A stretch of 64,000 bases of DNA from an uncultured Leptospiraceae bacterium (GCA_964629365.1 CAZVRB010000001.1:38693-102692); one strand, 5' to 3'; positions 17,948-35,596 are shown, counted from the stretch's first letter. Numbers and translations: made by a program. The notes: generated from the letters alone by a model not told the origin.

Positions 17948-18859
17948 TTATGTTCTCCTTTTTTTTCTTGAAGGCAATAATTCATTTATAACTTCCTTCA
18001 TTGTTCTTTTATTAACAGATCTCTCACTGCATCCAGGCAAACTGCAATCATATACCGGCACGTTGACTTTATAAAACAATTCATCCAGCCATTGCCTGGC
18101 AGCCAGAAACTGATGATCAGTATACCATTGCCTGCTGCGCCTGTTAATCATATAATGACGTTTTCGAAGAATGCGCATATATTCATCTGTTTCAGCAGGG
18201 ATCGTGCGACACTGCCGCAAAGCTGTTTGCTCCGTTGCCATGTTTCCGGCCGTATAGTATCTTTTATCAAATGCCAGATCATTACCCGCCAGAATCAATG
18301 ACTGTATATTACATCCAAGCACCAGGGATACTGCCTGGGTGGTAACGATACTTGCGGTAGCCACGTATCCAAGCTCTTCTCCTGCCTGCTTCCACAATTC
18401 ATTGAAGGGCTCACTGTGCAGCAGCCAGTTATAAAAACTCATACTTCCTTTCCACTGGCGGACGTTAATATTTGACATACCGCTGAATGCCAGAAGATGT
18501 ATCTTTTCGGTGGGAACACCATAGAAGAAAGGTACCGGCGTAGATTCACAGGATATCACAAAGGATGGGGTTATTCCCGCTTTCAATAATGGTTTCAAGG
18601 CCATATCCACGGCAAGTATTACCAGTTCTTTACGCTGATAATACTTTTTCAACTCACTCATGCTGTCTTCAAGGGAAGGACCCGCGCCGCATACAATAAC
18701 ATGTTTACCGGAAAAGCGTTGCACCACCGGCCCAAGTCCACCACACTTGTGAATATAGGGACTATTACGGGTAATATTTCTCTGTATGGCACCCAGCCGC
18801 TCATCGATAAGGGCGCTGTTTATATTATCGTATAATGTTTCAGCATTAACCAACACCAT
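17948..18859 (-). CDS. Motility-associated factor (Maf)-like protein, DUF115/MptE-like domain
   Basis: 303 aa with a GKHVIVCGAGPSL motif, characteristic of the DUF115 (6-hydroxymethylpterin diphosphokinase MptE-like) core found in Maf flagellin-glycosylation proteins. Sits directly upstream of flbD-motAB. Confidence 0.55.
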   Translation of the reverse strand: MVLVNAETLYDNINSALIDERLGAIQRNITRNSPYIHKCGGLGPVVQRFSGKHVIVCGAGPSLEDSMSELKKYYQRKELVILAVDMALKPLLKAGITPSFVISCESTPVPFFYGVPTEKIHLLAFSGMSNINVRQWKGSMSFYNWLLHSEPFNELWKQAGEELGYVATASIVTTQAVSLVLGCNIQSLILAGNDLAFDKRYYTAGNMATEQTALRQCRTIPAETDEYMRILRKRHYMINRRSRQWYTDHQFLAARQWLDELFYKVNVPVYDCSLPGCSERSVNKRTMKEVINELLPSRKKRRT

Positions 18860-18978
18860 CTCCAGCTTTTCAATATTCAGCTGTTACACTATACCGAAGC
18901 AGGATACAGTTGCAAGAAAAAATGACCGTACTGCTGCTATTTCAACATAATAAAGGAAGGATGGTAACCGTTCCCTTT

Positions 18979-20799
18979 TTACTTTCGTTTACGCAGGTTA
19001 TACTGCTTACTTCTTGAATCTTTCTGCATCATCTGGTAAGACTCCGAAGCCGCGTTCAGATCCTGTTCCTCTGAGGCCCTTTCCAGCCGTGACTGGTATT
19101 CAACTATATTAAGCACCTGTCGTTTCATCTCCCGTGATTTGTACTGTGAAAGTCCATCACGAACCACCTCGAGGTTTTCCTGGATTTTCGCCTTCGCGTC
19201 ATCAACCCTGCCCTTATCAACCAGGTCCATTGTTTCTTCCATCATGGAAGATGATACGAACATCTTGACGTCCTTCATAACCAGTGGATTCATATTGCGG
19301 GACACCAGTTTACTGTCAGCCGTTGATACAACATTCACCTTTTTACTTGAGCTTATCCTGCCTTCACCCTTTACCGTTTCATCATAGGTATATACCACCG
19401 TTGCAAGCACACCGGTGCTGATAGACTGCCTGGAAGGTATAAGTGCAAGCAGGGCCAGTTTTTTTTCTTCTGAGACCACGTCACCCATTTTAATGACTAC
19501 TCCATCATCTGTATCACTTGCCGTGTATCCGTATACCTTTTCAACCCGTGTACCATGTTCGGGTCGTATCTCAATACTGCAATTCTGTGCCACCACTGCC
19601 AGAAGCCCCTCCAGTTCATTGGAGAAAATTTCGGGAATCTTATCCGCCCTGTCAATGTAGTAATAAAAGGCGCTGCCGTACTCGGCAATACCGGTCATCA
19701 ACTTCTCGTTGAAATACTGCCCAACGCCGAATGTTGATATGGTAATGCCTTCTCCGGATCTCTGCCTGGCAAGCTGCTGTATCTGGCGGGGGTCGGTTAC
19801 CCCCACGTTGGCCAGCCCGTCAGATATCAGCAATACCCTGTTGACCTGGTTGCTTTTTAGTTTTTTCTTTACCTGGTTGCAGCCCTCCAGCATGCCACCG
19901 CTCAGGTTTGTTCCCCCTCCCGGTTCTATGGCATCAATAATTTTGTATATTTTATTCTTATCTGACACAACTTCCGGCTCAAGTGCCACGTCAACAACGT
20001 CATCATAGGTTACGATGGACAAGATGTCAGCTGACTCAAGGTTGCGCACAAGAAATTTCATGGCATCCCTGGCATAGTCCAGTTTTCCTCTGTCAGACAT
20101 GGAGCCGCTTCGATCGAGCACCACAGATATATTCAGCGGCAGTCTCTTCTCTGGACGTTCAGCTTTCCCCGCGAGAAACCCTGTTCTTACGTAAAAACTT
20201 CCGCTGTTGCTTTTGCTGATATACCTGTTCTGCGTCTGCAGCTCCAGCGTTACCAGCCCGGTATTCACTACGGGCCTGTCAGGTTCCACGTCACCGGAAA
20301 AATCTACGTAACTGCCGGTCAACGATTTCACCATCCTTCCGGATATGATATCCACCGCGTCAATGACACCGTCAACATCAGGGCTTCGCTGTTTATCGGC
20401 TGCCATGATCTTTCCGGAATTTACATCGATGAGGCGCACATCAATCCGCAGGTTCTCCCCCGTCCTGGCCACCGAACCGGTAAGCAGCTGCTTCGCTGCC
20501 AGCAGTTTGCCTATTTCGTTGGCATCACCCTCGGTCACCCCCGCGGCGGTGAGTCCTTTCTCTTCCAGTATTTTTTTCACCCGCTCACGCTCAAGCACCA
20601 CCATTTTGCCGCTCTGGGCCAGGTTGGTGGCTATCAGCTCGGGTACCGCAACGCTCAGGTAGGAGAGCGCGGAATCGCCGGTAACGTCCTTAAAGTCAAG
20701 TACCGCGATGGTATATTTTGACTGGGTGTGCCCATTATGGGTATGCACAAAGCTGACAACGGCAAGAAACATCACAGCAAATAATAATGCCCGTTTCAT
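18979..20799 (-). CDS. Secreted protein with CsgG-like N-terminal domain and von Willebrand factor A (VWA) domain
   Basis: 606 aa. Signal peptide. N-terminal YTIAVLDFKDVTGD...VVLERERVKKILEEKGL pattern is like the CsgG/LpoB-type fold. Central VWA domain with MIDAS (DRSGSM...TNLSGG...ISDG). C-terminal coiled coil. Confidence 0.6.
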   Translation of the reverse strand: MKRALLFAVMFLAVVSFVHTHNGHTQSKYTIAVLDFKDVTGDSALSYLSVAVPELIATNLAQSGKMVVLERERVKKILEEKGLTAAGVTEGDANEIGKLLAAKQLLTGSVARTGENLRIDVRLIDVNSGKIMAADKQRSPDVDGVIDAVDIISGRMVKSLTGSYVDFSGDVEPDRPVVNTGLVTLELQTQNRYISKSNSGSFYVRTGFLAGKAERPEKRLPLNISVVLDRSGSMSDRGKLDYARDAMKFLVRNLESADILSIVTYDDVVDVALEPEVVSDKNKIYKIIDAIEPGGGTNLSGGMLEGCNQVKKKLKSNQVNRVLLISDGLANVGVTDPRQIQQLARQRSGEGITISTFGVGQYFNEKLMTGIAEYGSAFYYYIDRADKIPEIFSNELEGLLAVVAQNCSIEIRPEHGTRVEKVYGYTASDTDDGVVIKMGDVVSEEKKLALLALIPSRQSISTGVLATVVYTYDETVKGEGRISSSKKVNVVSTADSKLVSRNMNPLVMKDVKMFVSSSMMEETMDLVDKGRVDDAKAKIQENLEVVRDGLSQYKSREMKRQVLNIVEYQSRLERASEEQDLNAASESYQMMQKDSRSKQYNLRKRK

Positions 20800-21031
20800 A
20801 TCCGCCCCCGGTTCGTGTATGAAGATTTTTGAATGTATTAAATATAGTCCTGTTTATTGGACAGGACAAACACTATTTTGTTCCGGAAATTTTTTAATTC
20901 TTTCTCTTTTAAGTGGTTAAAAGATTACCGCAAAGGGGGAATATTATTTATTTCTTCACGAATCTCTGCGCCCTTTGCGCCTTTGCGGTGAAAGCTAACA
21001 CCCCCACAAGTCCAGCCCCTGATTCACATAC

Positions 21032-23947
21032 TTAACGCATCAAACCCCGCGACTGCCTGCCTTCGGCCGCCCCCTCATACATGCCGGCAACACCGAAGTA
21101 GACCTGCGTTTCCCCGTACCGGTCAAAGCCGTGGGCAACACCCGCGAAACCGCTTATGTCATAGCCAAAGCCCAGGGTGATGCGTGTATGCAGTTCACCT
21201 CCCACGGAGGTTCTGAAATCAGCAAGGCCGCTGCTGCCTTTCCACACGTTGCCGTATTCCACGAATGGGACCGCCCAGACATCACGCAGCATCACCGGCA
21301 GTGTGCCGTATCCCAGGTCAAGCTGCAGCAGGGGCAGGCGGTATTCCAGGGCACCAACCACAAGCCTGTCCCCGTAGAACATGTCCGCCGCGTATCCCCG
21401 CATACCGAAGCGGTCCTCGCCGGTTTCCGCGGCGCCGGTCTTCCCCTTCTCGAACCGTCCCAGGTTGTAGGGGTCAAGGTAGCCAGGATTGTTGAACGAA
21501 GCCCCTCCCCGTCCCCGCAGCATGATGACGTTGTTGCGCCATATACCCGGAAGGTACCATGCAAGTTCACCCCGCACCTTCCCGTAATTCACGTCCGACC
21601 CCACACTGTCTGTATACCAGTCACCGATAACCATGAGCGTAACCCCGTCCTCCTGGCTTACCGAGTAGGAATACGAGGTAGCGCTGCTGAAGGAGTATCC
21701 CCCGTGAAAACCTGCCAGCACGTCCCGGTATTCGAAAACCCCCGCACCGCTGTAGTAGATGTCAGTCCAGGTCACCTCCCGGCTGTATGACAGGCTTAGC
21801 AGGTGCTGGTTGTAGAACTGCACGTACGGGATTGATATCCCTGCTTCAATGTTTCGTTCAAGTTCTCGTTTCAGGTTCTCTGAATGTTCTTCCTCCCACG
21901 GAAAGGTGTCCTCCCCGTAGAAAAGGGAGTTGTCACTGTAGAGTACCGTTATATCAGGATAGAGCCCGGCATAGGTATACTGCAGGGACACGTCCGCCCG
22001 CTTCTGCGCTACCGACGCTGCCCCGTACACCGTGTAGAAATGCCGGTAGAGGGTGTCCGCCCCCATGGTATAGAACCCGTACCAGCTGTCATAGCCGTCG
22101 GGGTATATTTCCTCCGAGTAAAGCACCGGCAGCCAGGCGGGGTTCACCAGCGAGTACAGGGGATTGTATCCGCCGGACCTGCCGCCGAACCTGTCCTGGT
22201 CATCGTATAACGCGGCTGTTCTGAAATACCCGTCGGCCGGTTCTGATGGTATTGTTCCCACCACTTCACCGTCGGCCGGTTGGGGAATTATGCCCACGTT
22301 GAACCCGTCCTTACCGTATGAAGCAACGGCGATACGTGACCCGTCCGGGGACACGTCCGGCCAGAACACCCCGCCAATTACGCTGGTGAGCTTTTTCACC
22401 TGCCCGGAGTTCAGATCAATATTGTAAAGATTGTACACCCCGTCACGGTCAGACACAAAAACCACCTTCCAGGCATCCGGGTACCAGTCAGCATGCATGC
22501 AGCTGTACGTCCCCCCTGTCAGCTGGCGTATGGTGTTATTCTGCATAGTATAAAGGAAGATATGACTGTATCCATTTGCGTCCCTGGCCGAGAACACTAT
22601 ACTCTTCCCGCCGGGAGATACCCTCACCCCCGAGATCTGCAGGGGCGTTTTCTCAATGAGCACCCGCGAAACCGAGTAGTCCTTTTCAAGCACCAGCAGG
22701 CTGTAGCGGTCGTCCTCAATCCGCACGCATGCCATTGTGCCGTCTGGGAAAGGGTCTACAGACTGGACCCGCAGGCCGCAGGTTTTGCGGTCATAGCCGT
22801 GGTCATAGGTGAACACGTCGTTATACATGAAGTAGGTTTTATAGTATTCCAGGTCGGCCAGCAGCACCCTGTCTTCACCCGTCACGCTGAGCCATGAGGG
22901 CATGTGTATGCTGGCAAGCTTCTCTTTTTCACCCGTATTCAGCGAAACGCGCATCAGTGCGGGAATATTGTAATTGGTCATCCTGGTGTAGTAGAGACTT
23001 TGTCCATCACTGCTGAAGCGGGGCATGGTGGTGAAATACCCGCTATGGGTCAGCACCCTGGGCTCCGTCACCCCCTTCTCCCTGATCTGGTCTGCCTGCC
23101 TGGTGTAACGCCGCACCGCCTCCTGCTGCCACTGCTCCCACAGGGCATAAAACGACCTGCCGTACACGTCACGGGCGTTTTTCTGCACCAGCCAGGGAAG
23201 CACGTTGTCGGCGTTCTCCCTGAACACCTCTTCGAACCGTCCATCCTTCTGGGTCTCCTGCAGGTAGTCCACGAAAAGTCCCCCGTACAGGTAGGGCACC
23301 ATCCCCGAAGGCCATTCCCTGGGGAAATACGAGGCCAGGTTTATTGATTTCAGGGAGTTCTCTTCAATTTCAGTCCGCATCACCATGTCAGTATAATTGC
23401 TGTTCACCCTCCCGTATGGATACTCAAGGGATTCACGGTATACCGGGTACCCTTCAAGATTCCACATGGGAAGGAACATGTTGGGGAAACACACCCGGCC
23501 CAGGGTATATCTTGTGGCTTCGGGAATACCGTCAATAATATCAAGGTTGAACACGTGGCTGTACTCGTGAATGAACACCAGCTCCATCCAGTCATCATAA
23601 TTACCAATAGAACTGTCAGCTTCGGGGCGGACGATAAAAAGCTGCACCCGGTTATAAGGCACCGGTATGGTAAACCCGTTGGGCTGATCGGTGTTGTCAA
23701 CCAGCACCACGTCGGTTCGCCAGTACGGCTCCCACCCTGTGGCCTGCACCAGCTGCCGGTGCACCTTCTCTGCGATGGGTACAAGCCGCCGTGCATGGTC
23801 TTCAAGCCCCTGGTGATAGTGTATCCAGAAATGCTCTGTCCTGATAGACTTCCAGTCAAGTTCAGGATGGAACATGAATGCCGCATCACCAATGCAGGGT
23901 ATAATTAATATTATAAGGAAGAATATAGAATGCAGAATCTTTTTCAT
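21032..23947 (-). CDS. Large secreted protein: HEXXH motif region, TolB-like PD40 beta-propeller repeats, and C-terminal Omp85/BamA-like beta-barrel-like domain
   Basis: 971 aa. Signal peptide. IHEYSH (HEXXH) near residue 130. PD40-like repeats (FSSDGQSLYY, VSPGGKSIVFS, VSPDGSRIAVASY). C-terminal ~350 aa is Y/G/S-rich with alternating amphipathic pattern and an RGY...G...ALEYRLPL segment resembling the Omp85 barrel signature. High GC. Confidence 0.5.
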   Translation of the reverse strand: MKKILHSIFFLIILIIPCIGDAAFMFHPELDWKSIRTEHFWIHYHQGLEDHARRLVPIAEKVHRQLVQATGWEPYWRTDVVLVDNTDQPNGFTIPVPYNRVQLFIVRPEADSSIGNYDDWMELVFIHEYSHVFNLDIIDGIPEATRYTLGRVCFPNMFLPMWNLEGYPVYRESLEYPYGRVNSNYTDMVMRTEIEENSLKSINLASYFPREWPSGMVPYLYGGLFVDYLQETQKDGRFEEVFRENADNVLPWLVQKNARDVYGRSFYALWEQWQQEAVRRYTRQADQIREKGVTEPRVLTHSGYFTTMPRFSSDGQSLYYTRMTNYNIPALMRVSLNTGEKEKLASIHMPSWLSVTGEDRVLLADLEYYKTYFMYNDVFTYDHGYDRKTCGLRVQSVDPFPDGTMACVRIEDDRYSLLVLEKDYSVSRVLIEKTPLQISGVRVSPGGKSIVFSARDANGYSHIFLYTMQNNTIRQLTGGTYSCMHADWYPDAWKVVFVSDRDGVYNLYNIDLNSGQVKKLTSVIGGVFWPDVSPDGSRIAVASYGKDGFNVGIIPQPADGEVVGTIPSEPADGYFRTAALYDDQDRFGGRSGGYNPLYSLVNPAWLPVLYSEEIYPDGYDSWYGFYTMGADTLYRHFYTVYGAASVAQKRADVSLQYTYAGLYPDITVLYSDNSLFYGEDTFPWEEEHSENLKRELERNIEAGISIPYVQFYNQHLLSLSYSREVTWTDIYYSGAGVFEYRDVLAGFHGGYSFSSATSYSYSVSQEDGVTLMVIGDWYTDSVGSDVNYGKVRGELAWYLPGIWRNNVIMLRGRGGASFNNPGYLDPYNLGRFEKGKTGAAETGEDRFGMRGYAADMFYGDRLVVGALEYRLPLLQLDLGYGTLPVMLRDVWAVPFVEYGNVWKGSSGLADFRTSVGGELHTRITLGFGYDISGFAGVAHGFDRYGETQVYFGVAGMYEGAAEGRQSRGLMR

Positions 23948-24029
23948 AACTTCACCACAAATTTTTTGGTATACTTATAAATTCGCATCATAGTAACATG
24001 CTGCTCAACGGGCCCCCTACATCCCCCCG

Positions 24030-26135
24030 TCACTTCACCCCCAGCCTGTCAGTAAGGATCAGCCGTCCCCACTGCGCCGCCAGGTGACCATTCCCCTTCC
24101 GTAGAATCACAATAATCCCCTTCTCATCCTTTCCACCCAGAAACATGCCGTATCCGAGGGGGAGGTTGGTACCGTCGATTACGGTTGAAGTTTTCCCCCA
24201 CAGGCCTGCATCAACAGGCTGCTGCTGCATGTCCCTGGTCAACCCAACGGGGTCCTTCCAGTTACACTCCGGCCCTGCAGGATGTATCGGCAGCGCCGCG
24301 GTACCTTCGGTGAAGGTGGCGGCAAGTGCCCTCCGTATCCTCACAAGACCTTCCCCGTCAATCTCTTCACGAAGCCGGTTCACCCCGTCATTACTGGTAG
24401 ACACCCCGCTCACCAGCATGGCAATTTTCACCAGGTCACCCACCCGCATGCTCACCTGGAAATCAAGCCCGGCGCATCGTTTTGACCACTCAGCCCTGCC
24501 ATTTACCGCCGAGAATGCATGCAGAAGCCCAAGCCTCTGGCACAACGTCGCGTAAAAACTGTTAAAATCATTAAACGAAATCTCACCCGCAAGTGAAGCA
24601 AAATACATGTTGCACGAATGTGACAGTGCAGGGAACAGGCTCATCCTCCCATGCCCTTCCGGTTTCCAGCAGCCGTCGCTTAGAATGGATTGGGCATCTC
24701 CCCGTGACCCGCAGGTAAAATGATATCCATCCACAAGGTCGGGCCGATGGCTCACAAGGTACAGCCCCATGATGATCTTCCACAATGATCCCGGCGGCAC
24801 CACCCGCTCTGCCATGGCCGGATGGCTCTGCCCCGTTACCTGCCCGCTGCGCATATCAAATGTCATATAGGACAGGTTGGGCGACCCCGCCATTTCCCCT
24901 TCTACCGCTTTCAGGGAAAGTTCCCTGTAATAATGTGTGAGTATCTCGTAACGCGAATAACCCATCGCAGCCAACGCAAGCGCCCCGTGCTGGCACAGGC
25001 CTACGTTATGCCCAAGCCCCCTGCCGCTAAAACGCAAAGCGGGGCCGTCATCCCTGTTCACCATCTCAAGGCGGTAATTATTGCTCTTAAGAAAATTCCA
25101 GCCCATTACCCGGTTAATCTTCAGCCTGAAAGTTTCCGGCGCCAGGGTCAACGAGCCCGAATCCCCTTTCATCATAACAACCGGCACCCCCGAATCATAT
25201 TCAACAGCAGGGGGGGGACGTGAAAGCTTCTCATCATCCAGGATGTCCCGCACCTGTACCGGTGAAAGCATTCGTGTCCACCCGTTATCACCTGCATGAC
25301 AGAGCACCATTCCTGTTCTGTAAAGAATATCCTTCACCGGCGGGAAACCTCTCTCCTCCGCTCCAAACACACCCATGTCCATGGTATGCCCCCCGCAACG
25401 AGAATGAAAGAGCAGGTGGCCGGCCAGGTTCTGGTGATCTATATACCATCTATCATCGTGCAGGAGGGATGGCTTCCCCGTCCTCCCCCTGTAGACCTGG
25501 CAATGGGTAAGGTCGCAGAACCGGTAAGGATGTCCGGGGTGATTATCCTGTATGTACCGGCACCGGGCCAGGATCACGTGGGCAAGGGCTGCCAACGCTT
25601 CACGGTGTATGGCAGGCCTGTTGCCGTATTCGGCACGGGCACTGTCAGATGCATATCGCGTTGGGTCTTCATAAACCACGGTAACAGGATCTTCATTCTT
25701 ATCAAGGGACAGGTATAGCGGAAGGGGATAGGTTCGCTTTACACCTGCCAGGTTCAGGGCAAAGGACTGCCCACCGGGCGGGGCTTCGATTTCGCATTCA
25801 ACCGGCAGGCCAACCGGCACATCATCCATGGTCACATGCCAGCCACGGTGAAAGCTCAGCTGCAGCCGCTGCACAGGAATGTTACTGCCTGCCCCCTCCC
25901 CGTACAGCCTGGTTCCAGCTGGGAAGGTGCACACGATCTGCCCCCTGCCCTCTTCGCGCATTTGGCGAAAGTGCTTCGAGAGCACCTGTATACCCACCCT
26001 TTCTTCGCCGGCAAAAAGCATTGCCGGCGAAAGAACACACAGCAGAAGAAGTATCCGGGTAATGCTGCTGGTATTATTCCTTCCTGTCAATTTCGATGGA
26101 ACCCGGCGGCGCCCATCCCTGTATGGTTGGTTCAT
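24030..26135 (-). CDS. Fusion protein: SpoIID/LytB domain plus penicillin-binding transpeptidase-like domain
   Basis: 701 aa. Signal peptide. CDLTHCQVYRG and GRGLGHNVGLCQHGALALA motifs are SpoIID/LytB hallmarks. C-terminal half has SXXK (PPGSLWK), SXN (SHSCN) and KTG-like (GKTST) motifs. The listed ATG start overlaps the A2M stop by 62 nt (an in-frame TTG would give a 17-nt overlap). Confidence 0.6.
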   Translation of the reverse strand: MNQPYRDGRRRVPSKLTGRNNTSSITRILLLLCVLSPAMLFAGEERVGIQVLSKHFRQMREEGRGQIVCTFPAGTRLYGEGAGSNIPVQRLQLSFHRGWHVTMDDVPVGLPVECEIEAPPGGQSFALNLAGVKRTYPLPLYLSLDKNEDPVTVVYEDPTRYASDSARAEYGNRPAIHREALAALAHVILARCRYIQDNHPGHPYRFCDLTHCQVYRGRTGKPSLLHDDRWYIDHQNLAGHLLFHSRCGGHTMDMGVFGAEERGFPPVKDILYRTGMVLCHAGDNGWTRMLSPVQVRDILDDEKLSRPPPAVEYDSGVPVVMMKGDSGSLTLAPETFRLKINRVMGWNFLKSNNYRLEMVNRDDGPALRFSGRGLGHNVGLCQHGALALAAMGYSRYEILTHYYRELSLKAVEGEMAGSPNLSYMTFDMRSGQVTGQSHPAMAERVVPPGSLWKIIMGLYLVSHRPDLVDGYHFTCGSRGDAQSILSDGCWKPEGHGRMSLFPALSHSCNMYFASLAGEISFNDFNSFYATLCQRLGLLHAFSAVNGRAEWSKRCAGLDFQVSMRVGDLVKIAMLVSGVSTSNDGVNRLREEIDGEGLVRIRRALAATFTEGTAALPIHPAGPECNWKDPVGLTRDMQQQPVDAGLWGKTSTVIDGTNLPLGYGMFLGGKDEKGIIVILRKGNGHLAAQWGRLILTDRLGVK

Positions 26136-29100
26136 ACATGCACTCCATCCTGGATGGTTTCACACTGAAAGTGCCCGGCAGCTCTGCCCGGATTATATAG
26201 GCAATCTCGTAGTATTTCCCCTTCTGAAGGCTGTTGAAGAAAAACACCATCCTGTTATCCCAGCGTTCGGCATTCACGTACGGCTGATAGCCGTCGTAGG
26301 CGTTTTTATCCACCACCTCGAAACCAGCCGGAAGGTAATCTTCAAGCACCAGGTATTCGAAATCATCACTTGCCACGAACCTCACCTTTACCAGCAGTTC
26401 ATCTCCTATCTTCAATTCTCTCTTATCATCAATATTCTGCGGTACAAGGTACTCGTTATGATGAATGTCCTTCACCCTGGTTACGTATGAGAATGAACGG
26501 GCAATCTGTATTCCATTGGACAGGGCATTCACGCTTCGTTTTTCGGATTTAAAGAGTGACAGCACACCGGCATCTTTGAATTTCAGGGTACCGTTGATCA
26601 CCACCTCGTAACTGAGATCCCTGCCGGCATCCCCCGCGGCTTCCACCGTAAATTCGGGAACCGTTCTTCCCCCTTCAAGGGGCAGTGTCCTGGTAAAGTT
26701 CTTCATGTCAATCTCACCGCTCAGATCATAGGTAAACTCGGTCAGATGCTTTCCGTCAAGGGTGAAGGCTACCTTTCCGCTGGTTTTCGGTGCGGCACCG
26801 ATACTGTCAATATAGTCACCCAGGGCAAATATTACCGTGGCGGTTTCCTTGGTAGAGTTCCATGCGCCACCCTTCCCTCTTTTGGTCAACGAACGCACCG
26901 CCCTTGACACCAGTGAAGTAGTGTCACCCGTTTCAACGAGAGCTGAAAGCACGTGTGCAGTAATCTCAGCACGTCCTCCCGGCCATCCCCATTGCTGGGT
27001 TCCCACGCTGGGCCAGTATATCCCCCGTCCGTCAAGTTCCTGTTTCTCTTTTAACGCGGCCAGGAACTCCTTTAAATCCTTTTTGAGATCCTGTTTTCTT
27101 TCATTTTTCAGTTTTTTTATGCCATCAGCCTTTACCAGGGCACGCACAATATATGCCAACTGGTAGGGGTTCATTGCAAGCTTGTCTGTGCAATACTCGT
27201 AGGCCTTTTGGTCCCATTTTCCATGAAGGGCGTACACGTACAGCAGGTAGGCCATCGCGTCATGTGACACCTGCCGGTATTTCAGCATCCTGGCAACGGC
27301 AGATACACCCTTATCGATAGCATTTTTACTTATGGCATACCCGTTCTTCTGCGCCAGCATAAAACCACTCAGAACGTAACCGGTTACAAAACCATTACCC
27401 CGGTCGCCATACCACCATCCCCACGAACCGTCACTGTTCTGCAGCTGCTGCAGCCGTGATATCCCCGAATCAACCTTGGCATGCAGTTCCTTTGTGGATT
27501 TCTCTGAAAGCAATGCCCCGTACCCCTGCCCCTGGGCAAGCCTGTACACCGCCATTGCCGGCAGAAACCTGTTTATGGTCTGCTCAATACAGCCATAGGG
27601 ATATTGCATAAGAAATTCTGTGGCCCGAAGCATCTGTATTACCGGTGAAGGGTTCACCTGTATGGTAACCGACTCGGGTACGAAATCAAAATCAGTGCTG
27701 TCTTTCAACGGCTGTATAACAATTTTGCTGTTATTTGCCATGTCTCCCGTTCCGTACAGCTTGTAGCGCACCCCCCGCCGCTCTACGGGCACATGCAGGC
27801 GCAGTGCGTCGCTGGCTGAGGCGTCCGCAATTGCGGTATATTCCATGGTGAGCTTTTGTGTATCATCCGGAATAATGGTTGTATAATATTCCCTGGAAGA
27901 CCCGAATCCAGGCAGGCTGATCTTCACCGGGTTATCGGCCACAGCCTTCTTCCCGTTGATCTTCATGGTGGTGGTAACCTCTTTCAAACCCCGTTTAGTA
28001 TTGCTGTTGACAATACCGATGATACCCATGGTATCACCTTCAACGGCAAACCGCGGTCGTCCGATTCGGGCGATCAGGTCTTGTGTTACCTGGAATTCTG
28101 ATTTATCTTCTCCAACCCGTCCCTCACGATCATGCCCCCTGGCGGTAAGCCTCCAGACGGTAAGGTTGTCGGGTAACGTGAAGGTGACCGAAGCCTTTCC
28201 GGCGGCATCGGTTCGTATCTTTCCCTTCCAGAAGGCAGTATCTTCAAACTTCTCCCTGATCTTTACCTTCCCCTCTTTTGCGGCACCGGCAAGAATGTGT
28301 ATGGGATAGGAGTAGCTTGTCAACACCCAGTTTGATATCTTTGTATAGAAGAAATTTTGCATTTTCGGCGTGTGATCGGGCCGGATCTGGTATATAGCCT
28401 CGTCAACAGCGGCAAGGGACAGGTCGGCTTCAAGGGGGTTCCCTTTCTTATCTGTTACCTTGATATGTACCGTTGCCTTTTCTCCAGGTTTGTATACCTT
28501 TTTATCATTTTTCATCTCGATGGAAAGACCGGTTTCTGCAACCGGAAGTTCAATATCAACCCTGCTGGTATACAGGGCCCGTTTTCTCTGCATGGTTGCG
28601 GTAAGGTAAAAGTTTGGTGCGTATGCAGGTTTCACATCAAATGTTACCGGTGTGATATTCCCTTTCATTTGTACCACCTTTGAGTGATACACGTCACGCC
28701 CCTCAAGTGTCAGGCACACGTAGGAGTCGGTGAACCTGCTTTTCACCAGGCAGGTGATCTTACCGGGTTCCTTCAAGCTTGTCTTGTCTACCGTAAGTTC
28801 AAGGTTCTTCAACTTTGACTTTATCTCTCCACCCTGCCTGCTGTATATCCAGATGATCCTGTTGGCGTTGATCTTGTTGTTATAACGGTCGGTACTTTCG
28901 GCAACCAGGTCAAACTCGCCGTAGTATGAAAACTTTTTGGGCAGTTCTACTGTCGCCCGGCCTTTTTTGTCAGTAGTGATCTTCTTTGAAAACAGCGGAC
29001 GCTTTTCATGCACATATACACGCTGCAGGGGTTTCCACACGTAGCGGTAAAGATCCAGGTTTACCCCGGCACGCATGGGATCACCCGTATGGGACAGGGT

Positions 29101-31434
29101 TTGAATCTCAATTTTCTTTTTCTCATTATCCGCGTAAAAATTCTGATCAGGGTTTATCTTGATATAATATTCCCCCCGGCCAACCTTTACCGAGTTGCTC
29201 GAAGTGATGCTGATATTAGACTTGTCCATCACGGTTGCCTCGAGGGTGATCTTACGATCATAGGGGTAGTTACCACTGTCAAAGCGCAATACGGCCACCC
29301 CTTCATCGTTTAGATATTTCTCACCTTCAAGGCGTATACGGTTGTATGATTCACGTGAAGGATAATCCTCTTCCCACCAGTAGGTGGTATCGGTATCACG
29401 CATCCTGGTTTCATAAAAGCGATACCGCACCAGCCCGTTTTTCAGCGGGGCACCAAAAAAGTATTTCGTCTCAACCTTAAATTCAACGGTATCACCGTTG
29501 GTGAAGTAGGGTTTTGAAGGGGTGATGTCTATTTTAAATTCCGGTTTTCGGTATTGTTCCATGTAGTAACGCCCGGCGGCATACAGGTTTTCCTTCGTGG
29601 GACCAACCCGTATATCATATTCACCAAGCCGTGCATCTGCTGCCATGACGATCTTACCATGCCAGGTTCCCCACTGGTCAAGGGTGATCTGGCCCTCTTC
29701 CACCGTACTGTTAAAATCCCTGTTGATTATCCTGTAATGCAGCTTCTGCCCGTTGAGCGGCATAAATCTACGCTTTCTTTCCTTGCCAACCACCTTGTAA
29801 AACACCGTGTCACCCGCCCTGTATACCGGCCTGTCAGTATAGATGAAGTACTTGTTCTTCTCACGGTCGAAGGCTGATGGCGATCCGGTGCTGCACAGGG
29901 CGTAGCTGCCGTCTTCTCCTATAACCAGCACAGTATAATGTTTCCTGGATTTCATCCTGTAGGTAAATACACCGTTGCTGTCAGTCTGCCCTTTTTTTAA
30001 TATCTTTACAGGCAGGTCTTCTATCCGTTTGGGGGGCTTGTAGGGATGTGTAGAATACCTGTACTGTTTCTTCTCGGGTGTTGAGTCAAATACCACCACC
30101 GATGCACCCTTGATGGGTTTGTTTTCTGCAAGATGGGTCACATAGGTAAACATGGAATATTGCGATCGCTTTGCCACCACCCCCACCGATGTAACAGAGA
30201 AGAACTTACGGCTGATCATTTTACCTGCACCCTCAACTTCAATGCAATAGCCCCCGGTTGGAAGCTGGTCTTTCAATTCCAGTGACTGGTAGCGCCATTC
30301 GTAGGGTTTGAAATTGTGAATAGGTTCACTCCATTCTGTGAACACCTTGAATTTCTCTTTTGCCGGATTGATGGTATCCGGATCAACGTGCCCCTGCAAA
30401 AATGTATTCAGCGGCACCTGGTATACCCGCACTTTTACCGATTCAAGGCGAAAGGTGCGCAGGTTGAATGAAAGTTTATTACCCGGCACAAAGGTATACC
30501 TGTATGAGTAGACGCTTAATGCAGGATCTTTCGGGGTCACATCGTAATCAAAATCTTTCTTTCTCTCACCTTCTGTTATCTTGAAGGAAGAGGTTTCCAT
30601 TGTATCAAATCCCCGGTGATGAATTCGCAGCTTGTAATTACCTGGTTTCAGGTCTTCAAGTACATAAGTTCCATCATGGAAAGTACTGGCCGAGTAGGTT
30701 ACCCTGCCAACCGCCTGAACGTCCACGTTTATGGCAGGGGCGTTTAGTCCCTTGATGCTGATTGTACCGGATATGGAAGCCGGTTCATATACTACCATGG
30801 GAAGGGTGAAGGTTTCACCATTCTTAATATACTTGATGCGGGCAGTTTCGGTAATATATCCCGGTTTACTGAAGGTTGCCATGTATCTGCCCGCGGGAAG
30901 CTTGTTAAAGCTGTAACTGCCATCATCACCTGTTGACTGTATGAAAGGCTTGTTACCCTGTCCATAACCGGAAGACGTCTGCTGCAGTTTTACCTGCACC
31001 CCTTGTACCGGTTTACCGTCACCTCCCCGCACTACACCCGTGAGAATGCCTTCTCTCTGTAAGTATATAGTTCTCTTTCCGGCTTCCACTTTTTCGGTAG
31101 TCTTATATGTGACGTATCCGTCTGCTACAACTTCAATTATATATCGTACCTGCGGTATAAAGTTTTCAATTTTGAAATACCCACCGTTATCTGTTTTTTC
31201 AAGGTAGTAGCCCACTCCCATCTGTGCGTTCTTCAGCTCCACCGTGGCCCCTGCAACTGCATCTTTGTTCTGTGCATCCAGAACCCGTCCTTTCACCACA
31301 TATTCTTTTTGCAGTTTTTTATCGTCAGGACCGGTATACACAACTGTTCCGTCCTCCATGTGCTTTTTCCCGGTGGTAGTACACCCCGTAATCACCAGCA
31401 GCATGAGAGCTATACACACAATAACCTTCTTCAT
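26074..31434 (-). CDS. Bacterial alpha-2-macroglobulin family lipoprotein with intact thioester motif
   Basis: 1786 aa. Lipoprotein signal (LLVITGC). Multiple MG/CarbopepD_reg-like domains. Thioester GCIEQ (QYPYGCIEQTINRF). Helical TED-like region and C-terminal receptor-binding-like domain. Confidence 0.85.
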   Translation of the reverse strand: MKKVIVCIALMLLVITGCTTTGKKHMEDGTVVYTGPDDKKLQKEYVVKGRVLDAQNKDAVAGATVELKNAQMGVGYYLEKTDNGGYFKIENFIPQVRYIIEVVADGYVTYKTTEKVEAGKRTIYLQREGILTGVVRGGDGKPVQGVQVKLQQTSSGYGQGNKPFIQSTGDDGSYSFNKLPAGRYMATFSKPGYITETARIKYIKNGETFTLPMVVYEPASISGTISIKGLNAPAINVDVQAVGRVTYSASTFHDGTYVLEDLKPGNYKLRIHHRGFDTMETSSFKITEGERKKDFDYDVTPKDPALSVYSYRYTFVPGNKLSFNLRTFRLESVKVRVYQVPLNTFLQGHVDPDTINPAKEKFKVFTEWSEPIHNFKPYEWRYQSLELKDQLPTGGYCIEVEGAGKMISRKFFSVTSVGVVAKRSQYSMFTYVTHLAENKPIKGASVVVFDSTPEKKQYRYSTHPYKPPKRIEDLPVKILKKGQTDSNGVFTYRMKSRKHYTVLVIGEDGSYALCSTGSPSAFDREKNKYFIYTDRPVYRAGDTVFYKVVGKERKRRFMPLNGQKLHYRIINRDFNSTVEEGQITLDQWGTWHGKIVMAADARLGEYDIRVGPTKENLYAAGRYYMEQYRKPEFKIDITPSKPYFTNGDTVEFKVETKYFFGAPLKNGLVRYRFYETRMRDTDTTYWWEEDYPSRESYNRIRLEGEKYLNDEGVAVLRFDSGNYPYDRKITLEATVMDKSNISITSSNSVKVGRGEYYIKINPDQNFYADNEKKKIEIQTLSHTGDPMRAGVNLDLYRYVWKPLQRVYVHEKRPLFSKKITTDKKGRATVELPKKFSYYGEFDLVAESTDRYNNKINANRIIWIYSRQGGEIKSKLKNLELTVDKTSLKEPGKITCLVKSRFTDSYVCLTLEGRDVYHSKVVQMKGNITPVTFDVKPAYAPNFYLTATMQRKRALYTSRVDIELPVAETGLSIEMKNDKKVYKPGEKATVHIKVTDKKGNPLEADLSLAAVDEAIYQIRPDHTPKMQNFFYTKISNWVLTSYSYPIHILAGAAKEGKVKIREKFEDTAFWKGKIRTDAAGKASVTFTLPDNLTVWRLTARGHDREGRVGEDKSEFQVTQDLIARIGRPRFAVEGDTMGIIGIVNSNTKRGLKEVTTTMKINGKKAVADNPVKISLPGFGSSREYYTTIIPDDTQKLTMEYTAIADASASDALRLHVPVERRGVRYKLYGTGDMANNSKIVIQPLKDSTDFDFVPESVTIQVNPSPVIQMLRATEFLMQYPYGCIEQTINRFLPAMAVYRLAQGQGYGALLSEKSTKELHAKVDSGISRLQQLQNSDGSWGWWYGDRGNGFVTGYVLSGFMLAQKNGYAISKNAIDKGVSAVARMLKYRQVSHDAMAYLLYVYALHGKWDQKAYEYCTDKLAMNPYQLAYIVRALVKADGIKKLKNERKQDLKKDLKEFLAALKEKQELDGRGIYWPSVGTQQWGWPGGRAEITAHVLSALVETGDTTSLVSRAVRSLTKRGKGGAWNSTKETATVIFALGDYIDSIGAAPKTSGKVAFTLDGKHLTEFTYDLSGEIDMKNFTRTLPLEGGRTVPEFTVEAAGDAGRDLSYEVVINGTLKFKDAGVLSLFKSEKRSVNALSNGIQIARSFSYVTRVKDIHHNEYLVPQNIDDKRELKIGDELLVKVRFVASDDFEYLVLEDYLPAGFEVVDKNAYDGYQPYVNAERWDNRMVFFFNSLQKGKYYEIAYIIRAELPGTFSVKPSRMECMYEPTIQGWAPPGSIEIDRKE

Positions 31435-31465
31435 TTGTTTACTCCTTCATATGTTTGGTGGCGCG

Positions 31466-32095
31466 TTACGGTTCTGCCCTGAGGGTAACACACCTGAACG
31501 CGAACAGCTGCACAACATCGTATGGCGAAAGTATCTTTTTCAAATACTCTATGCTTTTAATTTCGGAGGGGACAATGACAAGAATGCTGCCATCCCCGCA
31601 ATGAGCCTTTATACCAAAACGGCTTATATCAAGAGTTTCAAGTGAAGCAACCGGGTACAGACCTGATGCCACTGTCAGTATAATACTGCTTTTCTCAAAC
31701 TCATGGGCCTCCAGCGGCCTGTGCCGATTGTCCCGTGTCAATGCCCCTTTTAAATAATCACCCAGAACACTTTCAGCGTTACCAGTTGCATGATGAAAGG
31801 CGCCGTAACAGCCCCTAACCCTGCCATTATATACCAGTGTAATAAAAAGCCCGAACCTGCCATAAAAATCAGGAAGTGTGCACAAAAAATGTACATTACC
31901 ATCTTGACCCTGCAGGTGTCCGGCACCCTTTTGCCTGAGCCAGTGAAACAAACATTTCTCTTCTGTTGACCCCCTGATTATACTCCAGCTTTCCAGGTCG
32001 TCACCTGGCTGCGACATCACCGGGAGGCATACAATAACAATTGTCACCACCATTAGGGTAACAACAATCAATACCTGTGCTACGGTTCGTATCAT
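31466..32095 (-). CDS. Membrane-anchored AMMECR1-like domain protein (tentative)
   Basis: 209 aa. N-terminal TM helix. GLFITLVYNGRVRGCYGAF resembles the AMMECR1 LRGCIG core motif. Confidence 0.35.
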   Translation of the reverse strand: MIRTVAQVLIVVTLMVVTIVIVCLPVMSQPGDDLESWSIIRGSTEEKCLFHWLRQKGAGHLQGQDGNVHFLCTLPDFYGRFGLFITLVYNGRVRGCYGAFHHATGNAESVLGDYLKGALTRDNRHRPLEAHEFEKSSIILTVASGLYPVASLETLDISRFGIKAHCGDGSILVIVPSEIKSIEYLKKILSPYDVVQLFAFRCVTLRAEP

Positions 32096-32814
32096 CGCAA
32101 TCGAACCGGCGGATAGTAATCCTTGTACATGAGAAAGGACTCAATAACTTTACCGTTTTTCATCTTGTTTCTATACACATATACCGACATGCCGGGGCGT
32201 ATCCCGTCATCTGAATCAAGAGGAAGGGGCACATCCTCTTCTTCTGTCACCAGCTCGTATGTATGTTTCAGGGGTTGGGCAGCCCGTATAGTAATTGCAA
32301 GGCTGCTGTTATTCATCACTGCGCTGATATATAGTGGCTGGTCATGGGGATTCCTGATGCGCAGATCCTTCTTCCCGTACTTGATTGTGGCATCCAGGCC
32401 CAGGGGTACATAGGTGACCGGCTGATAATGCCTGTGACGCTCCACGATGGCACACCCTGCCATAAGCATGGCATTAAAAAGTGTTGATGAGACCTGGCAT
32501 AATCCTCCACCCGGCTCAAGGACAACCTCGTCCCTGTATAATACGTTCCCATTGGCGAACCCGTTGGCCGCAGAGCCTTCGCCAACAATTCCATTAAACG
32601 AGAGCACCGATCCCGCTTGCAGCACAAAGCCCTCAAGCCTGTCACAGGCTATTGCAATATTTTTTTTCACTTCCGGGGTCTGGTCTTTCACTGACGTGGA
32701 GAAGTTTGCCACTACCTGCAATCCAGGCATGGTATACCCTGGCAGGCAAAGACATCCGGCCAGGATAATTGATGGAATTATTCTTCTTTTCTTCATTATA
32801 TATACCATGCGCAA
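32092..32814 (-). CDS. VanW-like protein
   Basis: 240 aa with signal peptide and a VanW-family core (LEPGGGLCQVSSTLFNA). Stop overlaps the downstream gene by 4 nt. Confidence 0.65.
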   Translation of the reverse strand: MRMVYIMKKRRIIPSIILAGCLCLPGYTMPGLQVVANFSTSVKDQTPEVKKNIAIACDRLEGFVLQAGSVLSFNGIVGEGSAANGFANGNVLYRDEVVLEPGGGLCQVSSTLFNAMLMAGCAIVERHRHYQPVTYVPLGLDATIKYGKKDLRIRNPHDQPLYISAVMNNSSLAITIRAAQPLKHTYELVTEEEDVPLPLDSDDGIRPGMSVYVYRNKMKNGKVIESFLMYKDYYPPVRLR

Positions 32815-32927
32815 GATATCATTAGTATAACACCGGCTTTATAATGGGCAATACTGTACGCATACGCCGGAAGTTGGTCAAATACTATTTACCGTTAATT
32901 TGTTGACCCCTCTATATTCAAGGTGTA

Positions 32928-33554
32928 TTGTCGCCTGATCACAAGAATCTATCGGGGCTTACAATGAAAAAATGGGACATACAGGAACGCAAAGAACTCT
33001 TTAACAGGCGGATTTTCTCCATCGACGACCTGCGTTGCTATCATCCTGAAAAAGATGTAACACATGATTTCTATGTTCTGAACAATCCTGACTGGATCAA
33101 TATCGTAGTTCTTACCCACGATGAAAGGCTGGTTCTAGTAAAACAGCATCGGCTGGGTACCGATGAGATAACTATAGAAACCGTAGCGGGGCTGATGGAT
33201 GATGGAGAACTGCCTGAAATATCCGCGCAAAGGGAATTACTTGAAGAAACAGGTTACCATGCAGGCGAAATGATCCTTATGAAAAAGCTTTCTGCCAACC
33301 CCGCCATTATGTCTAACCACATATACTTCTACCTCGCACTGAATTCAAAGAAAATCGCTGATCAGTCCCTTGACATTGCCGAGGATATCGATGTTATTAC
33401 CGTTTCTCAACATGAAGCACTTGAAATGGTATCAGAGGGCACCATCAACCATACTATCATCGTTACGGCATTAAGTCTTTTCTTTCTGTCTCCGTATTCA
33501 CATATACAATCAGATAAACTACGGGAGCTATTTTCATGCTCACACAGCGGTTAA
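32928..33554 (+). CDS. NUDIX hydrolase (ADP-ribose pyrophosphatase-like)
   Basis: Nudix box GLMDDGELPEISAQRELLEETGY. Real start may be the ATG at 32964 (MKKWDIQ). Confidence 0.8.
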   Translation: MSPDHKNLSGLTMKKWDIQERKELFNRRIFSIDDLRCYHPEKDVTHDFYVLNNPDWINIVVLTHDERLVLVKQHRLGTDEITIETVAGLMDDGELPEISAQRELLEETGYHAGEMILMKKLSANPAIMSNHIYFYLALNSKKIADQSLDIAEDIDVITVSQHEALEMVSEGTINHTIIVTALSLFFLSPYSHIQSDKLRELFSCSHSG

Positions 33555-33982
33555 CCAGGTACCTTTTCTGCATCATCATTCTTCTGCTTACAGATATCCT
33601 CTCTGCTGCCGACTACAGGTGCATTATTTCTTATCATCCCCTGCCATTTTATTACAGCCAGTGGTCAATCGAGGTATACAGGGAAAATGAGAACTATTAT
33701 ATCGCTTCCAGCAATATTCCTGATCTTAAGCGAAAGGCATCCCTCTCCCGTGAAGCATACATTGATTTCATTATGAATATGAATAAAAAAGGAATATGGC
33801 GCCTCAACGACTATTATCAACCCGGTTCAAAGAACCCGTATTACCTTGTTTCAGTCACTGATAAAGAATTCTCCAATACCTTCAAAATCGAGGATAATGC
33901 TTCATATCCCGGGTCGAAATATCATTACAAAGAAATAGTGCGTATATTTAAAAATTATGCTGACATCTATCTGGAAAAATAA
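33536..33982 (+). CDS. Hypothetical secreted protein
   Basis: 148 aa with N-terminal hydrophobic signal-like segment. Tyr/Asn-rich. No recognised family. Confidence 0.4.
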   Translation: MLTQRLTRYLFCIIILLLTDILSAADYRCIISYHPLPFYYSQWSIEVYRENENYYIASSNIPDLKRKASLSREAYIDFIMNMNKKGIWRLNDYYQPGSKNPYYLVSVTDKEFSNTFKIEDNASYPGSKYHYKEIVRIFKNYADIYLEK

Positions 33983-34121
33983 TCTCTATTGTGTAGAAGT
34001 ACAGAAAAATCGAATTGACAAAACGCTGCCTTGTTTAGTAATATAAGCGAAATACCAATGTGTGCATTTCTGTTCCCACACAGAATCCGCAATAAAATTA
34101 AATAAACCCCGGAGGTTATAT

Positions 34122-35189
34122 ATGTTAAAGAGAATTTTTATTCTTTCTCTTTGTTGTTTCATTGCATTGGCTTTTTCCACCGTATCATTTTCACAGGAAG
34201 AGCCCGCAGAAACAGAAGAAACGATGGAGGACGCAGCCGTAACTCCTGATACAGAAAGTCCAGAATCAGAAGAGCTCACAAAAGAAGAAGTTATTGCAAC
34301 CGATGCTGAAAAAGCAGCCTCGCATTTTGATGGACTAAATCATTATGTTAATTCCAAGGTCATGTTTGAACTTTCTGTAAAGGACAATCTTCTTGCTGAC
34401 AAGGTTATGTATAAGATTAATGGTGATGAAGAGATGGTCTATGAATCTCCCTTCCGACTTACAGAAGAAGGTAAGCATAACATCAGCTATTATGGTGTCG
34501 ACCGGGTTGGTAACAAGGAAGACATGAAATACTTCAAGGTTGTGGTTGATAACACCGCACCGGAAGTATCAGTCACCGCATCACAGCCTGTTGTGAAATC
34601 AGGCGAAAAGTATTACGCATCACAGGCGTTTTCTTTTTCCGTTGACGCCAAGGATAATGCTGCAGGTGTAAAGCAGGTTGAATATTCATTTGATGGAAAC
34701 ACCTACAACGAGTATGTGGCTCCATTCGCATTTGACTCAACCGGCGATTCATCATTAAAGTTAAAAGCTAAGGATAACGTACTCAATACTACAGAAAAAT
34801 ATTCACTTAAAGTATTGGATGAAAACGGTAACCTGCAGGAACTGGAAGGCGATTCGGTAGCCATTTATGTTGACAATACCGCACCAGTTGTTGAAATCAA
34901 GGCTGATAAAGAATTCATCGACAAAGACGGCAAGAAAGTTGCTTCCGTAGATTACACATATGAAGTAACTGCAAATGACACCGAATCAGGTGTTGCCGAT
35001 CTTTTAGTCAGGCTTGATGGAAAGGGTAACTTTGTAAAATACACAGCTCCGATACAGTTTTCCAAAAACGGTGAACACCTGATCGAAGCCAAGTCTGTTG
35101 ACAAGGTTGGAAACACATCAGCTGTTAAACTTCTTTCAGTGTATGTTGATGTTATTCCTCCTGAAACTATGATCAGGACAGTTGATTAA
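34122..35189 (+). CDS. Secreted protein with tandem Ig-like (VDNTAP-type) repeat domains
   Basis: Start set at ATG 34122, preceded by a GGAGG RBS. Signal peptide. Acidic linker. Two repeats beginning VVVDNTAPEVSV and YVDNTAPVVEI, typical of bacterial Ig-like surface domains. Confidence 0.6.
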   Translation: MLKRIFILSLCCFIALAFSTVSFSQEEPAETEETMEDAAVTPDTESPESEELTKEEVIATDAEKAASHFDGLNHYVNSKVMFELSVKDNLLADKVMYKINGDEEMVYESPFRLTEEGKHNISYYGVDRVGNKEDMKYFKVVVDNTAPEVSVTASQPVVKSGEKYYASQAFSFSVDAKDNAAGVKQVEYSFDGNTYNEYVAPFAFDSTGDSSLKLKAKDNVLNTTEKYSLKVLDENGNLQELEGDSVAIYVDNTAPVVEIKADKEFIDKDGKKVASVDYTYEVTANDTESGVADLLVRLDGKGNFVKYTAPIQFSKNGEHLIEAKSVDKVGNTSAVKLLSVYVDVIPPETMIRTVD

Positions 35190-35215
35190 ACCGGTTTTTA
35201 AAAAATAAATATTTC

Positions 35216-35252
35216 ATATGGTGAGCGTATTTACGCTCACCATATTTATTAT
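35216..35252 (+). terminator. Rho-independent terminator (14-bp perfect stem ATATGGTGAGCGTA/TACGCTCACCATAT, 3-nt loop, T-rich tail)
   Basis: Read directly, 27 nt downstream of the Ig-like repeat gene stop. Confidence 0.7.
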
Positions 35253-35593: not shown

Positions 35594-35596
35594 TAG

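Follow-up and report, generated by a model that had tools for sequence, protein, structure and literature searches.

This study concerns a group of genes on the minus strand of a 64,000-nucleotide (nt) stretch of DNA, here called the window, from an uncultured Leptospiraceae bacterium (GCA_964629365.1, CAZVRB010000001.1:38693-102692). A first-pass annotation, made from the sequence alone, had grouped three consecutive genes as one unit: an alpha-2-macroglobulin (A2M; gene 1), a fusion of a SpoIID/LytB domain with a penicillin-binding protein (PBP) transpeptidase (TP)-like domain (gene 2), and a protein with an outer-membrane barrel (gene 3). All three open reading frames (ORFs) were confirmed on the minus strand, with an overlap of 62 nt between genes 1 and 2 and a gap of 82 nt between genes 2 and 3. 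Comparison with other genomes redraws the unit, because the synteny shared with Spirochaetota loci covers a VanW gene, an AMMECR1-like gene, the A2M gene and gene 2 (24030-32796). The A2M/gene 2 pair of the original grouping therefore stands, being kept in 10 of 12 loci, while gene 3 falls mostly outside the unit and two upstream genes belong to it. The features of this four-gene cassette are as follows.

32797..32927, minus strand: intergenic region 5' of the VanW gene, likely to hold the cassette promoter; bounded by a divergent plus-strand NUDIX gene at 32928
32092..32796, minus strand: VanW-domain protein of 234 amino acids (aa) from the ATG at 32796, exported, possible lipoprotein (LAGC), predicted LD-transpeptidase (Pfam, motifs, synteny)
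31466..32095, minus strand: exported AMMECR1-like protein of 209 aa with an N-terminal hydrophobic anchor (Pfam, motif, synteny)
26074..31434, minus strand: gene 1, thioester A2M lipoprotein of 1786 aa with three N-terminal CarboxypepD_reg domains (Pfam, PDB relatives, synteny)
27580..27594, minus strand: thioester motif GCIEQ, gene 1 residues 1281-1285 (read from the sequence)
24030..26135, minus strand: gene 2, 701 aa, with signal anchor, beta-sandwich, SpoIID-fold domain and PBP-type TP domain (profiles, AlphaFold2 model)
24900..25658, minus strand: SpoIID/LytB-fold domain of gene 2, about aa 160-412 (invariant columns, profile, Foldseek)
24033..24884, minus strand: PBP transpeptidase-fold domain of gene 2, aa 418-701 (invariant columns, profile against 7rd0, hhalign)
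24609-24719, minus strand: candidate Zn site, gene 2 residues 473-509 (C475/C489/H495/C508)

The four genes are closely packed: the VanW and AMMECR1-like genes overlap by 4 nt, 31 nt separate the AMMECR1-like and A2M genes, and the A2M gene overlaps gene 2 as stated above. An N-terminal signal or anchor sequence is present in all four products, and the genes are probably co-transcribed. Two sigma-70-like matches lie on the minus strand upstream of the VanW gene (32881-32853 and 32851-32824); these are consensus matches only, and since our promoter and terminator scans returned matches at background frequency, we treat all such sites as weak hints. An Rfam scan of window positions 18000-36000 found no RNA family.

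To define the unit we collected loci carrying relatives of gene 2, using one genome per species, and compared each with the window; the sample is small, was seeded from gene 2 rather than from A2Ms, and consists entirely of metagenome-assembled genomes (MAGs) or metagenomes. A full-length gene 2 homologue (34-40% identity) is carried by 12 Spirochaetota/Leptospirales MAG loci, and in 10 of these a thioester A2M, 45-56% identical to gene 1, lies directly upstream. An AMMECR1-like gene precedes the A2M in eight of the ten, and in six of those eight a VanW gene precedes the AMMECR1-like gene, giving the order VanW-AMMECR1-A2M-gene 2 found in the window (L001, L002, L005, L006, L009, L010). Two loci have AMMECR1, A2M and gene 2 (L008, L012), and in the remaining two, A2M and gene 2 are present on contigs that end within the A2M (L007, L011). 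The genes are tightly packed or overlapping in these loci, and the VanW gene is also syntenic in four close relatives of the window (L081-L084). The rest of the window has no further synteny with the Spirochaetota cassette loci. That the A2M and gene 2 are neighbours by chance, with no functional module behind the arrangement, would fit the gene 2 homologues of L003 and L004, which have no A2M nearby; we consider this very improbable, since the order and the overlapping or nearly abutting junctions persist at 34-55% protein identity amid unrelated flanking genes, and the association recurs as split genes in at least seven other lineages, described below.

Gene 1 is the lipoprotein A2M that the first-pass annotation took it to be. 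Its N-terminus, MKKVIVCIALMLLVITGC, carries a lipobox, read directly from the sequence, the thioester lies in the context YPYGCIEQ, and Pfam places three CarboxypepD_reg domains ahead of MG2, A2M_BRD, A2M, TED_complement (51.8 bits) and bMG10, all above cut-off. The closest solved structures are E. coli YfhM (PDB, 5e-26) and the Salmonella A2M. Gene 1 thus combines the thioester domain (TED), the lipobox and the MG, bait-region and bMG10 domains of a type I A2M, and the search of this 1786-aa protein for a thioester-containing A2M fold was positive by both Pfam and the PDB match to YfhM.

Gene 2 required more sensitive comparison. Pfam scores for the window protein are 17-19 bits for SpoIID (PF08486; cut-off 23) and 15.3 bits for Transpeptidase (PF00905; cut-off 22.1), and TIGR02669 scores 58.4 bits against a cut-off of 83.3, with the C-terminal motif region alone scoring. 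NCBIfam matches SpoIID_LytB at 1e-15 and the pbp2 transpeptidase region at 2.5e-8, phmmer with gene 2 matches SpoIID and PBP2 in the PDB, and PF00905 is precomputed in many gene 2 homologues. A family profile built from 32 homologues matches C. difficile PBP3 (7rd0) at 6.7e-15 and SpoIID (5i1t) at 5e-11 over positions 170-402. The AlphaFold2 model (pLDDT 87, pTM 0.87) leads to the same assignment: Foldseek matches it to SpoIID structures 5i1t and 4rwr with probability 1.0 and a TM(target) of about 0.61, and matches its TP domain to SpoVD, PBP2, PBP3 and OXA-427 with probability 1.0. Both the SpoIID and the transpeptidase folds proposed for this 701-aa protein were therefore recovered by the domain searches and the structural model, and the SxxK, SxN and KT(S) motifs are intact. 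The proposed absence of a GT51 glycosyltransferase also held: Pfam gives no GT51/Transgly match in gene 2, and tblastn with E. coli PbpC gives no PBP1c match within the 64-kb window.

The alignment of the 32 homologues (A1), which are 33-40% identical, defines the residues under strongest constraint. In the TP part, S450-L-W-K453 (SxxK), S507-C-N509 (SxN) and K648-T-[S/A/G]-T651 (K648-T-S650 in the window) are invariant. So are C475, C489, H495 and C508, which repeat the pattern of the active-site Zn motif known from two C. difficile PBPs, PBP3 and SpoVD, in which a Cys takes the X position of SxN (PMC9334274); the alignment to PBP3 7rd0 brings out this shared Cys/His pattern. Both in sequence and in fold, the gene 2 TP domain is matched best by these clostridial Zn-binding class B PBPs, which share its Cys, Cys, His, SxN-Cys arrangement, a candidate Zn site; gene 2 has no class B pedestal or N-terminal domain, and its TP part, of about 285 aa, is placed C-terminal to SpoIID. 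In the SpoIID part, E169, E179, C207, C212 and G248-G249 are invariant, and the motifs HSRCGG and GLGHxVGLCQHGA are strongly but incompletely conserved. E169 and E179 fall just before the EAxxA helix and within it; the alignments to solved SpoIID structures did not reach the catalytic residue. With SpoIID/LytB proteins such as SpoIID of B. subtilis and C. difficile, gene 2 shares the fold and the C-terminal GHGxGxxQxGA, and it conserves the EAxxA helix and the Cys/His cluster; lytic transglycosylase activity is predicted for this domain. Gene 2 is not a sporulation protein: its SpoIID part is joined to a PBP domain, the gene is linked to that of an A2M, and no SpoIIP or SpoIIM partner was seen with it. 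A search of 1.84 billion representative sequences with the gene 2 profile yielded about 47 full-length clusters at 50% identity; pooling the earlier homologues with the new representatives gives 104 sequences in SpoIID>TP order, by local domain calls.

The first gene of the cassette adds a further candidate wall enzyme. Its product matches VanW (PF04294) at 143 bits against a cut-off of 27, and GGG[LVI]CQ, ER..H and G.DAT (for example GGGLCQ, ERHRH and GLDAT) are conserved across 10 cassette VanW homologues. LD-transpeptidase activity, based on a Cys-His-Asp triad, was demonstrated for VanW domains in 2024 (PMC11348318). The cassette protein shares the VanW domain with C. difficile Ldt4 and Ldt5 and has conserved candidate Cys, His and Asp residues; its Cys presumably corresponds to Ldt4 C286 and Ldt5 C298, an equivalence drawn from the motifs rather than from an alignment. 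It differs in having no PG4 or G5 domains, in its linkage to an A2M, and in belonging to a diderm, VanW proteins being reportedly scarce in such bacteria (PMC11348318). The second gene encodes an AMMECR1-like protein (PF01871, 43.4 bits; cut-off 25) with the VRGCYG motif and an N-terminal transmembrane or signal segment, its predicted exported location being atypical for AMMECR1. Genes for exported AMMECR1-like proteins also form part of A2M clusters in three phyla (L013, L023, L085).

The same parts are found elsewhere as separate genes. A cluster in the phylum UBA10199 (L085), located via a SpoIID-only relative (P0081), encodes an A2M, VanW, a 349-aa protein, a TP (295 aa, PF00905), two small ORFs, SpoIID and AMMECR1, and two further loci, one of them a Pseudomonadota MAG (L013) and the other L023, have the same gene content. 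In a second type of cluster (L015, L016, L025, L045, L051, L087, L080) the order is YfaT/MagC, A2M, a YfaP-like gene, variable genes, TP, SpoIID and a HExxH protein of roughly 200 aa. TP and SpoIID are separate overlapping genes, TP then SpoIID, in the split clusters, and the split TP genes of these other phyla match PF00905 at up to 141 bits. CxEQ is kept in every A2M near a TP+SpoIID pair, whereas E. coli YfaS lacks it. Nine such thioester A2Ms lie outside the spirochaetes (L013, L015, L016, L025, L045, L051, L080, L085, L087), and the premise of the first-pass annotation, a near-universal pairing of thioester A2Ms with PBP1c, accordingly fails among the loci we retrieved. Scanning the 1.84 billion representatives also uncovered, by local domain calls, at least nine clusters of TP>SpoIID fusions and at least nine of TP>SpoIID>HExxH fusions, which argue that the three domains act together.

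Several further observations were made at these loci. The 349-aa protein between VanW and TP (L085 7337-8386, L013 3382-4341, L023 41-1087) has no Pfam match. A Ser/Thr protein kinase gene stands before TP-SpoIID in L087 (7435-9009), and an unannotated ORF of about 524 aa occupies that place in L025 (8261-9832); upstream of TP, several Acidobacteriota loci without an A2M carry unannotated ORFs of about 570-640 aa (L018, L019, L028, L064). A small HExxH domain lies C-terminal to the SpoIID region in a common stop-free frame in L016 (9902-11389), L041 (8996-11299), L045 (9005-11386) and L080 (4598-6541), which are Acidobacteriota and Elusimicrobia loci. In a Myxococcota MAG (L020 11-10711), a classical type I pair of YfhM-like A2M and PbpC has a SpoIID-family gene about 4.5 kb away, encoded on the other strand, possibly by coincidence.

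Published work recognizes two classes of bacterial A2M: type I, with a thioester and PBP1c, and type II, without a thioester and encoded in the Mag operon (PMC5764988). The cassette resembles the type I pair yfhM (ECAM)-pbpC in that a periplasmic lipoprotein A2M with a CxEQ thioester is followed directly by the gene for a wall enzyme of the penicillin-binding fold, overlapping in the window and abutting in E. coli, and the rationale of a trap combined with wall repair is common to both (PMC5764988). It differs in its partner, which lacks GT51 and instead places a SpoIID-fold domain ahead of a minimal TP domain, in the addition of exported VanW and AMMECR1-like proteins, and in the three extra N-terminal CarboxypepD_reg domains of its A2M.

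Type II systems, like the cassette, are multi-gene A2M operons (yfaA-yfaT-yfaS-yfaQ-yfaP in E. coli; magABCDEF in P. aeruginosa), and one of their products resembles gene 2 in its TP region. Residues 35-162 of YfaQ ('tandem DUF2300') align to the gene 2 TP region, including PLGSLWKL, which holds the Ser and Lys of SxxK, and SCG at the SxN position (hhalign, 92% when one sequence is aligned and 94.5-95.6% between profiles); of the four candidate Zn ligands, YfaQ keeps three as Cys, the His being replaced. The partner is therefore not entirely unprecedented, its TP part being homologous to the N-terminal region of a protein from a known type II operon. YfaQ also matches Pfam SpoIID (27 bits; cut-off 23), and a precomputed SpoIID match is present in most of 120 listed YfaQ-family members, including Pseudomonas proteins of roughly 547 aa; because hhalign finds no significant match between this part and the SpoIID region of gene 2 (probability 0.1%), direct homology of the two SpoIID regions stays a suggestion, and the SpoIID assignment in YfaQ is based on Pfam. 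P. aeruginosa MagE belongs to COG5445, is 61.7 kDa in size and has a signal peptide (PMC3735191, PMC5764988), and from its size, its COG and the naming of Pseudomonas homologues we infer that it is the equivalent of YfaQ. Split clusters L016, L025, L045, L051 and L087 carry YfaT/MagC, and L025 and L087 also YfaP homologues, beside a thioester A2M and TP+SpoIID.

There are also differences from type II. The window A2M has a thioester and a lipobox, both absent from published MagD (PMC3735191); tblastn with E. coli YfaT (MagC, DUF1175), YfaP (DUF2135) and YfaA (DUF2138) found no match within the window; YfaQ runs from TP-like to SpoIID-like and gene 2 from SpoIID to TP; YfaQ has SCG and KTW where gene 2 keeps SxN and KT(S); and Pfam DUF2300 gives no match in gene 2. 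The cassette, a thioester A2M with a TP/SpoIID partner, and its split relatives fit neither type I nor type II, yet are clearly of the same general kind. The YfaQ family (E. coli yfaQ, L090 3149-4798) has in addition an invariant C-terminal THEYLHLAF...DE at residues 515-545, inside DUF2300, which resembles a HExxH...E zincin site and takes the position of the HExxH domain in the TP>SpoIID>HExxH fusions. When this HEYLH segment is aligned with the small HExxH protein, the two coincide at the expected position, but at a probability of only 17.6%, and their correspondence stays a suggestion that we do not claim.

Our best reading of these comparisons is that the cassette is the spirochaete version of a widespread and undescribed class of thioester-A2M cluster whose wall partner is TP+SpoIID, sometimes with HExxH, and the recurrence of its parts across many phyla points to an undescribed third class of bacterial A2M operon. 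Literature searches joining A2M with SpoIID, DUF2300 or VanW found no relevant paper in the library searched, in keeping with the earlier impression that an A2M with a SpoIID-TP partner is apparently undescribed. The four genes probably constitute an operon of exported products in which a protease trap and wall enzymes together form a periplasmic module for peptidoglycan remodelling or repair. In this model, the A2M lipoprotein would trap endopeptidases that pass a breached outer membrane, bait-region cleavage exposing the GCIEQ thioester for covalent linkage to the protease, and the co-expressed enzymes would then rework peptidoglycan at the damaged site. As a lytic transglycosylase, the SpoIID domain would cut or trim glycan strands, and the serine TP domain would be a DD-transpeptidase or a DD-carboxypeptidase; tetrapeptide donors would be generated, and VanW would use them to form 3-3 cross-links. 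Such a pairing of a trap with three predicted peptidoglycan enzymes extends the published rationale for yfhM-pbpC, which couples an A2M to a wall enzyme (PMC5764988).

Some of our observations weigh against this model. Window gene 2 scores under the curated Pfam and NCBIfam cut-offs for both of its domains, the gene 2 homologues of L003 and L004 lack an A2M within 10 kb, and the AMMECR1-like protein has no part in the proposed mechanism. MagE has been found in cytoplasmic fractions and linked to MagD processing, not to wall repair (PMC3735191, PMC5764988), and the in vivo protease-trap role of bacterial A2Ms is itself a hypothesis. One explanation that takes up the Mag data is that gene 2 serves as an A2M accessory for folding, processing or localisation, as the Mag partners do for MagD, with its SpoIID and TP folds acting as binding modules. 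The TP-homologous YfaQ/MagE family no longer has the Asn of SxN and carries KTW instead of KTG, and deletion of magE changes the forms of MagD seen on blots (PMC5764988). However, every catalytic motif of both gene 2 domains is invariant in homologues only 33-40% identical, a member of a bona fide LD-transpeptidase family is encoded alongside it, and the split TP genes of other phyla match PF00905 strongly; we therefore regard an accessory role as improbable compared with wall repair or remodelling.

YfaQ and MagE look like diverged, fused relatives of the TP+SpoIID module. A bolder version of our model, which we put forward only tentatively and think somewhat doubtful, is that thioester A2Ms across bacterial phyla have TP+SpoIID(+HExxH) rather than PBP1c as their widespread, possibly ancestral partner, that YfaQ/MagE is its degenerate fused descendant, that A2M function is tied to peptidoglycan turnover through a three-enzyme repair machine (LD- and DD-transpeptidation and glycan trimming), and that the HExxH-propeller-barrel protein encoded by gene 3 was possibly recruited in this clade. 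The evidence for PBP1c pairing has so far been largely gene adjacency, and the cassette provides independent comparative support for cooperation between A2Ms and peptidoglycan enzymes. It also supplies partners with recognisable active sites (the serine TP and, by prediction, the SpoIID Glu and the VanW Cys), offers a concrete hypothesis on the origin of YfaQ/MagE, and places a predicted VanW-type LD-transpeptidase in the context of envelope stress in a diderm.

Downstream of the cassette lie the gene that had been counted as its third member and a possible terminator.

21032..23947, minus strand: gene 3, 971 aa, with a Peptidase_MA_2-like HExxH domain, a TolB-like propeller and an Omp85-like barrel (Pfam, AlphaFold2 fold)
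20847..20867, minus strand: terminator-like hairpin 3' of gene 3 (pattern match only)

The domain composition first proposed for gene 3, a HEXXH motif, a PD40 propeller and an Omp85-like barrel, is borne out by motif, profiles and fold. HEYSH occupies residues 127-131, and H127-E-x-x-H131 and E165 are invariant in the family; Pfam and NCBIfam give PD40 and TolB-propeller matches; and Pfam Omp85 reaches 23.6 bits, just short of its cut-off of 24, which relatives exceed. The AlphaFold2 model (pLDDT 86.6) has fold matches to TolB and, for a 16-strand Omp85 barrel, to those of BamA/TamA. The C-terminal barrel is thus like that of BamA/TamA by fold, but no POTRA domain was matched in gene 3, residues 25-570 being the HExxH domain and the TolB-like propeller instead.

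According to the first-pass annotation, the A2M, the SpoIID::TP protein and gene 3 form one envelope-spanning system in which gene 3 is the outer-membrane component, for example as a protease that processes the A2M or one that acts on the wall or outer membrane. Gene 3 does follow gene 2 directly in the window and in its close relatives L081-L084 (gene 2 65-84% identical), with gaps of 82-264 nt, and the gene 3 family is well conserved within the window lineage; our scan, by pattern match only, placed a terminator-like site after gene 3 and none between genes 2 and 3; and the two genes share a raised GC content at third codon positions (GC3) that is absent from their neighbours. A HExxH domain also recurs with TP-SpoIID in other phyla, fused or adjacent, and hhalign relates the gene 3 N-domain to the small HExxH protein of the TP-SpoIID clusters as a remote homologue (95.7%, E 8e-9). 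This likeness, however, is one shared across the broad Peptidase_MA_2 superfamily, and a direct hidden Markov model (HMM) search with the small-protein profile gave no match to gene 3. Outside the close relatives, no gene 3 homologue occurs within 10 kb downstream of gene 2 in any other Spirochaetota locus, an HMM of the gene 3 N-domain has no match in any other cassette locus, and the homologues of L088 and L089 stand between unrelated genes, beside HDOD and glyQ, without an A2M. Because this missing linkage outweighs the arguments for a connection, we consider the three-part system unlikely and, in our main reading, reject gene 3 as a conserved member of the cassette; it is probably not a component appended to the unit, and is most likely an independent outer-membrane protein encoded beside the cassette in this lineage only. 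A comparison of the gene 3 N-domain with YfaQ gave a probability of 3%, and no relationship is claimed.

Base composition sets genes 2 and 3 apart from their surroundings. Together (21032-26135) they have a GC content of 0.56 and a GC3 of 0.62-0.69, against 0.43 for the window and a GC3 of about 0.44-0.55 for neighbours that include the A2M and VanW genes; the elevated GC3 is also seen in L081 and L083 but not in the distant cassettes L001 and L006. Genes 2 and 3 may have been acquired or replaced together in the window clade. Downstream of gene 3, window positions 18979-20799 on the minus strand encode a 606-aa protein with a CsgG/TolB_N/FlgO-like N-domain and a VWA domain; this gene keeps its position in L081-L084, with a CNNM/CorC gene inserted before it in L081 and L082.

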